From Escherichia coli (GTDB lineage Bacteria > Pseudomonadota > Gammaproteobacteria > Enterobacterales > Enterobacteriaceae), in assembly GCF_002854065.1 (NCBI RefSeq), contig NZ_CP024147.1: a stretch of 64,000 nucleotides of DNA, one strand, 5' to 3'. Position 1 is the stretch's first letter; each line of letters begins with the position of its first letter. Both the position numbers and the translations under genes were made by a program. Of the stretch, positions 6,000-8,627 are shown piece by piece. The notes under the pieces are model-generated. The model was not told where the DNA came from, made no database searches, and saw only the letters and a list, made by a program, of their open reading frames with translations.

Positions 6000-8627
6000 T
6001 TATTCTTCTTCTGGCTCGTCGTCAACGTCCACTTCCGGAGCGATTTCATCGTCCCCTTCCGCGGCACTGCCGTCGATGGTATCCAGATCTTCCTCGTCAA
6101 CCGGTTCAGCAACACGTTGCAGACCCACTACGTTTTCATCTTCCGCAGTACGGATGAGGATCACGCCCTGGGTGTTACGGCCCACGATGCTGATTTCTGA
6201 AACGCGAGTACGTACCAGCGTACCGGCATCGGTGATCATCATGATCTGGTCGCAGTCATCTACCTGTACCGCGCCAACAACTAAACCGTTACGTTCGGTA
6301 ACCTTGATGGAGATAACCCCTTTCGTCGCGCGCGACTTGGTTGGGTATTCCGCCACTGCGGTACGCTTACCATAACCGTTTTGCGTTGCGGTGAGGATTG
6401 CGCCATCGCCACGAGGCACGATCAGAGAGACGACTTTATCACCTTCGCCTAAACGAATACCGCGAACACCGGTGGTGTTGCAGCCCATCGCACGGACAGA
6501 AGACTCTTTAAAGCGCACCACTTTACCTTCGGCGGAGAACAGCATTACTTCATCTTCGCCACTGGTCAGGTCAACGCCGATCAACTCATCGCCTTCAACC
6601 AGTTTGATCGCCACTTTACCGGCGGTACGCAGACGGTTGAATTCGGTGAGGACGGTTTTCTTCACAGTACCGTTAGCGGTCGCCATGAAGACTTTCACGC
6701 CTTCTTCAAACTCGGTCACCGGCAGGATCGCGGTGATACGTTCGTCCTGCTCCAGCGGCAGCAGGTTGACGATCGGACGACCGCGCGCGCCACGAGTGGC
6801 CTCCGGCAACTGGTAAACTTTCATCGAATAGACGCGACCACGGCTGGAGAAGCACAGAATATGGTCGTGCGTGTTCGCCACCAGCAGTCGGTCGATAAAG
6901 TCTTCTTCTTTAATACGTGCGGCAGATTTACCTTTCCCGCCACGACGCTGCGCTTCGTATTCAGAAAGCGGCTGATATTTAACGTAGCCCTGGTGAGAGA
7001 GCGTCACGACCACATCTTCCTGGGTGATCAGATCTTCCAGGTTGATGTCTGCGCTGTTGGCGGTGATTTCAGTACGACGTTTGTCACCGAACTGTTCACG
7101 AACCAGCTCCAGCTCTTCACGGATCACTTCCATCAGACGATCGGCGCTACCAAGAATACGCAGCAGTTCCGCGATCTGATCCAGCAGCTCTTTGTATTCG
7201 TCGAGCAGTTTTTCGTGCTCAAGGCCGGTCAGTTTCTGCAAACGCAGATCCAGAATCGCCTGAGCTTGCTGTTCGGTCAGGTAGTACAGACCATCACGCA
7301 CGCCGAACTCTGGCTCCAGCCATTCCGGACGCGCAGCATCGTCGCCAGCACGTTCGAGCATCGCGGCAACGTTGCCCAGCTGCCACGGATTAGCCACCAG
7401 CGCAGTTTTCGCTTCTGCAGGCGTCGGCGCATGACGGATCAGTTCGATGATCGGGTCGATGTTCGCCAGCGCCACGGCTAATGCTTCAAGGATATGAGCA
7501 CGATCGCGAGCTTTACGCAGTTCGAAAATAGTACGACGGGTCACCACTTCACGGCGGTGACGAACAAACGCCGCGATGATGTCTTTCAGGTTCATGATCT
7601 TTGGCTGACCATGGTGCAATGCCACCATGTTGATACCGAAAGAAACCTGCAACTGGGTCTGGGAGTAGAGGTTGTTGAGCACAACTTCACCGACCGCATC
7701 GCGTTTCACTTCAATCACGATGCGCATACCGTCTTTGTCAGACTCGTCACGCAGCGCGCTGATGCCTTCCACGCGTTTTTCTTTTACCAGTTCCGCAATC
7801 TTCTCGATCAGGCGCGCTTTGTTTACCTGATACGGAATTTCGTGGACGATAATGGTTTCACGTCCGGTTTTGGCGTCAACTTCCACTTCGGCACGGGCGC
7901 GGATATATACCTTGCCGCGACCGGTACGGTAAGCTTCTTCAATACCGCGACGGCCGTTAATGATTGCCGCCGTCGGGAAGTCCGGCCCCGGGATGTGTTC
8001 CATCAGCCCTTCAATGCTGATGTCTTCATCATCGATATACGCCAGACAACCGTTGATGACTTCCGTCAGGTTGTGCGGCGGGATGTTGGTTGCCATACCT
8101 ACGGCGATACCGGAAGAACCGTTCACCAGCAGGTTAGGAATTTTGGTTGGCATGACGTCGGGAATTTTTTCCGTGCCGTCATAGTTATCAACGAAATCGA
8201 CCGTCTCTTTTTCGAGATCGGCCATCAGTTCATGGGCAATTTTCGCCAGACGGATTTCCGTATAACGCATTGCCGCCGCAGAGTCGCCGTCGATGGAACC
8301 GAAGTTACCCTGACCGTCTACCAGCATGTAACGCAGCGAGAATGGCTGCGCCATACGGACGATCGTGTCATAAACCGCCGAGTCACCATGGGGATGGTAT
8401 TTACCGATTACGTCACCAACGACACGGGCAGATTTTTTATAGGCTTTGTTCCAGTCATTGCCTAGTACGTTCATGGCGTAAAGTACGCGACGGTGTACCG
8501 GCTTCAGGCCATCTCGGACATCTGGCAGCGCACGGCCAACAATGACCGACATCGCATAATCCAGATAGGAGCTCTTCAGCTCTTCCTCAATGTTGACCGG
8601 TGTAATTTCTCTCGCAAGGTCGCTCAT
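6000..8627 (-). CDS. gyrA: DNA gyrase subunit A
   Basis: 875-aa ORF beginning [53 protein letters not shown]; the region around codons 83-87 reads [13 protein letters not shown]. Confidence 0.99.

Follow-up and report, generated by a model that had tools for sequence, protein, structure and literature searches.

A wild-type quinolone-resistance-determining region in an intact chromosomal gyrA of Escherichia coli

The gyrA gene within the 64-kb stretch of Escherichia coli DNA that we analyzed (the window) encodes serine at position 83 (TCG) and aspartate at position 87 (GAC), counting codons from the ATG of the ORF at 6000..8627. This bears out the earlier note, which had called both residues wild type. 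The genotype, the identity of the gene and its integrity can all be read directly from the DNA, and no evidence was found against the genotype. The best explanation, about which we have very little doubt, is that this is the normal E. coli allele, with a drug-sensitive gyrase A. Sensitivity of the target gyrase is expected because both the Ser83 and Asp87 anchors and all other residues of the region that determines quinolone resistance (the QRDR) are intact. Resistance mediated by gyrA is not predicted from this sequence, and a susceptible phenotype would be conditional on loci outside the window. By collinearity with the annotated E. coli strain 100416, the window contains no parC, parE, gyrB or plasmid quinolone-resistance gene. 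Resistance may still come from parC, parE, gyrB, qnr, aac(6')-Ib-cr, qepA, oqxAB or efflux regulators, all outside the window; the earlier note was right to caution that other loci could confer it, and none of them lies within the window.

The earlier note placed the genotype at 8365..8385 and left the strand unstated. Only one long ORF spans that interval; it lies at 6000..8627 (minus strand) and, according to the ORF list and its translation, has an ATG start and 875 codons plus stop. Whole-protein scores against NCBIfam were well above cutoff for two gyrA equivalogs, TIGR01063 (1309.7 bits vs. a cutoff of 877) and NF004043 (1258.7 bits vs. 902). Pfam mapped the breakage-reunion domain DNA_topoisoIV (PF00521) to residues 32–507 (E = 6.7e-163) and found six DNA_gyraseA_C repeats (PF03989) in the C-terminal part, the number proper to a six-bladed beta-pinwheel. 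The GyrA-box, QRRGGKG, occupies residues 560–566. Tyr122, the catalytic residue through which E. coli gyrase becomes covalently joined to DNA, is encoded at 8262..8264 (minus strand), where residues 119–125 read AMRYTEI. Residues 1–875 align with residues 1–875 of the solved E. coli chain 6rks_A without gaps, so that E. coli residue numbering is valid for the window protein. Re-indexing of the codons, gap-free against both 6rks_A and K-12 b2231, left positions 83 and 87 unchanged. The gene order, yfaA-gyrA-ubiG-yfaL-nrdAB, is the canonical K-12 context.

GyrA of K-12 MG1655 (b2231, NP_416734.1) has the same length of 875 aa, the same residue at 874 of the 875 positions, and the same QRDR amino acids. 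The genes differ at 37 nucleotides (98.59% identity), which yield the single substitution D678E and are otherwise silent. With a full-length orthologue at 98.6% nucleotide identity to K-12 gyrA, a chance match is no concern. The nucleotide differences from K-12 are clustered at gene positions 601–800 and 1801–2200, a pattern that could reflect either divergence between lineages or recombination long ago. Among 5426 complete E. coli genomes, 5425 gave a full-length gyrA match; in only 360 of these was the DNA at least 99% identical to that of the window, and the others were at 95–99%. Two genomes, of strains 100416 and CUWW06, have an annotated gyrA 100% identical at the DNA level, and the gene of O157:H7 strain PV15-279 is 99.51% identical. 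The RefSeq protein WP_001281251.1, found in strain 100416 and in O157:H7 strain PV15-279, is identical to the window GyrA, including S83, D87 and E678.

The gyrA-ubiG intergenic region (8628..8773, minus strand), in which the promoter of gyrA (TGTGTTATAAT) and its ribosome-binding site lie, is the same as in K-12 MG1655 at 146 of 146 positions, on which ground we rejected a promoter or expression change at gyrA; the neighbors yfaA, ubiG and yfaL are likewise shared with that strain. With its near-K-12 protein, wild-type sites, Tyr122 and GyrA-box, and K-12-identical promoter, gyrA looks like an intact chromosomal copy that is fully functional and normally expressed. Its product would be expected to introduce negative supercoils together with GyrB, judging from the 874/875 identity to the biochemically characterized K-12 enzyme.

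The QRDR, defined as GyrA residues 67–106 (PMC9953508, citing Yoshida 1990), lies at 8310..8429 on the minus strand, and both the codon table and the K-12 comparison show its amino acids to be those of K-12. Codon 83 is at 8379..8381 (minus strand), where S83L would read TTG, and codon 87 is at 8367..8369 (minus strand), where D87N would read AAC. Three silent QRDR differences from K-12 were found, at codons 85 (GTC to GTT), 91 (CGC to CGT) and 100 (TAT to TAC). Other resistance sites were checked singly and are wild type: A51, A67, G81, D82, A84, Q106, A119 and A196. Relative to K-12 there is thus no substitution in residues 67–106 or at positions 51, 119 and 196. The QRDR peptide quoted in the earlier note was read correctly and corresponds to residues 78–90 (8396..8358), but the interval assigned to it is narrower: it takes in codons 82–87 completely and, at its two ends, the last base of codon 81 and the first two bases of codon 88.

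Genotype frequencies in the species were estimated with 33-nt queries over codons 79–89, run by megablast against the 5426 complete E. coli genomes. Megablast requires an exact 28-mer, and each 28-mer of a 33-nt query includes codons 81–87, so a match means identity across those codons. The wild-type sequence of codons 81–87 was found in 2652 genomes (at least 48.9%), 2013 with GTT at codon 85, as in the window, and 639 with GTC. S83L alone was found in 485 (8.9%; 413 GTT, 72 GTC), and S83L with D87N in 1702 (31.4%; 1371 GTT, 331 GTC); the remaining 587 (10.8%) had other patterns at codons 81–87. No other genotype is as frequent as wild type, even though the collection is biased toward clinical and resistant isolates. 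The resistant alleles (S83L, and S83L with D87N) are forms of the same gene on the same silent background, most mutant alleles also having GTT at codon 85. They differ from the window, which has TCG and GAC, by TTG at codon 83, either alone or combined with AAC at codon 87; these changes break the water-metal ion bridge to the drug (see below). The protein exactly matches a RefSeq entry common to many strains, and wild type is the commonest state in the species; scientifically, the genotype is nothing new.

We considered whether the gene might instead be the paralogue parC, encoding topoisomerase IV subunit A, in which case positions 83 and 87 would be mis-indexed and the relevant hot spots would be S80 and E84. 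ParC and GyrA do have the DNA_topoisoIV domain in common, and the protein gave strong partial matches to the parC models of NCBIfam. Yet every parC model scored under its curated cutoff (parC_Gneg, 581.5 vs. 628.9) while both gyrA equivalogs scored above theirs; a length of 875 aa, six repeats in the C-terminal part and a GyrA-box are features of gyrase; 874 of 875 residues are those of K-12 GyrA; and the synteny with ubiG and yfaA is that of gyrA. These cutoffs, the GyrA-box, the synteny and the K-12 identity exclude parC, which we regard as vanishingly improbable, and TIGR01063 above cutoff, parC_Gneg below and canonical synteny together uphold the earlier note's identification of the gene as gyrA. 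A second coding function at the QRDR would follow if the antisense ORFs across gyrA encoded real proteins. Three plus-strand ORFs (141, 206 and 323 aa) do lie inside gyrA, within 6391..8465, and the longest (7494..8465, 323 aa) covers the QRDR. None of them matches a Pfam family, no gene is annotated there in the reference genomes compared, and the highly conserved minus-strand gyrA accounts for the region fully. In genes of this kind, codon usage is known to leave long antisense frames free of stop codons. These ORFs are probably such frames, and real antisense proteins here are extremely unlikely.

Taking the gene to be gyrA with a wild-type QRDR, there is still its one departure from K-12 to weigh. 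Codon 678 (6594..6596, minus strand) is GAA, for Glu, in place of the K-12 GAC, for Asp, and falls in the C-terminal beta-pinwheel domain. As the sole residue differing from K-12, and located in the DNA-wrapping domain, D678E could be proposed as a non-canonical resistance or compensatory change acting despite the wild-type QRDR. It has been listed, after enrofloxacin exposure of one strain, among substitutions outside ResFinder that are possibly tied to resistance (PMC11721436), and its role in Shigella was called unsettled and in need of more study (PMC10269460). Against this, the change from Asp to Glu is conservative, and the C-terminal domain (residues 535–841, matched by chain 1zi0_A) is distant in sequence from the drug pocket. 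By the same short-query megablast approach, over codons 670–680, E678 (GAA) was found in at least 1403 of 5426 genomes (25.9%), the O157:H7 lineage among them, and D678 (GAC) in 3656 (67.4%). E678 occurs together with S83 and D87 in the proteins identical to the window GyrA. In a Thai series D678E tracked the sequence types ST405, ST38 and ST448 rather than adding resistance, and published mentions of it are mostly lineage-associated (ST405, ST38, ST448 and S. sonnei). We give the resistance or compensatory reading very little credence. On the strength of its frequency, its conservative chemistry, its C-terminal location and the wild-type QRDR alongside, we treat D678E as a common lineage polymorphism, apparently neutral and unlikely to have a resistance role. 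That E678 on an otherwise wild-type GyrA might subtly shift the supercoiling set-point or the quinolone response is conceivable, but we consider it a long shot.

The rest of the window is collinear with strain 100416 at ∼99.98% identity, save for two features. By that collinearity it begins with an alpha-2-macroglobulin-family gene, yfaT, yfaA, gyrA, ubiG, yfaL and nrdAB, and continues with inaA, glpQT, glpABC, the arn operon, pmrD, men genes, elaA/B/D and nuoE-N. The alpha-2-macroglobulin-family gene sits at the K-12 yfaS position; whether it is the yfaS orthologue is uncertain. Two apparent departures from the K-12 gene order fall in ∼14800..29000. The same collinearity indicates an intact LysR regulator and an MFS transporter between inaA and glpQ, where K-12 presumably has only the yfaH pseudogene. 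The rhamnonate genes are apparently missing from the window, again by collinearity with strain 100416; in K-12, rhmA/T/D/R (formerly yfaU-X) presumably lie between rpnE and yfaY.

The first of the two features is in yfaL/ehaC (9637..13399, minus strand), which encodes an autotransporter adhesin. It contains a perfect 28-bp tandem duplication (CATTAGCGATGTTATTGCGAAACACGGC twice, with 12867..12894 repeated as 12895..12922), which frameshifts yfaL and leaves two ORFs (173 and 1127 aa); with one copy taken out in silico, a single ORF of 1244 aa was regained. Strain 100416 (otherwise ∼99.98% identical) and K-12 are without the duplication, as are eight genomes among the matches listed in a search for genomes sharing it. 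In this search, two pieces joined by reusing the same 28 subject bases give 100% coverage even without a duplication, and all eight listed matches spanned 72 bp, the length expected when it is absent.

The second feature is an IS1 element of 768 bp that occupies 32290..33057. Its ORFs are those of InsA and InsB, its ends are inverted repeats, and it is flanked by a 9-bp target duplication, GAGCGACAT, found at 32281..32289 and again at 33058..33066. The insertion falls within the regulatory region between the divergent genes ais and arnB, upstream of both: the ais ATG is 57 bp away and arnB ∼260 bp. The IS1 is absent at ais-arnB in strain 100416, and an identical junction was found in no complete E. 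coli genome searched. The junction query reached at least 80% coverage in four genomes, in each case as two pieces spanning 264–448 bp, meaning that these four have an IS1 nearby but at another site. From its position, the insertion might alter expression of ais or of arn, which is concerned with the lipid A modification of polymyxin resistance.

The mechanism by which the wild-type residues would confer sensitivity can be outlined from the literature. Ser83 and Asp87 are placed on helix IV, adjoining the DNA-cleaving Tyr122. The quinolone's C3/C4 keto-acid chelates an Mg2+ ringed by four waters, two of which are hydrogen-bonded by Ser83 and Asp87, forming the water-metal ion bridge. Both residues have been described as the anchors of this bridge, in agreement with the biochemistry of S83L, D87N and S83A in E. 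coli gyrase, and the commonest resistance substitutions are S83L and D87N/Y (PMC9917921). The bridge retains the drug in the cleaved-DNA complex, and with its anchors intact here, the gyrase should bind fluoroquinolones normally. The order of steps toward clinical resistance in E. coli has been given as S83L first, followed by parC S80I and gyrA D87N (PMC10376670); S83L, taken to be the first and most important step, is absent here. In a set of 704 genomes for which MICs had been measured, ciprofloxacin MIC was predicted chiefly by four markers, gyrA 83, gyrA 87, parC 80 and qnrS1 (PMC7490380).

An effect of E678, if true, would give phenotypic relevance to a lineage polymorphism that is common and regarded as 'neutral'. 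The call at gyrA 83 and 87 is among the most informative ciprofloxacin MIC markers for E. coli and Shigella genomes, and given the wild-type call obtained here, the source strain is unlikely to have high-level fluoroquinolone resistance mediated by the target.
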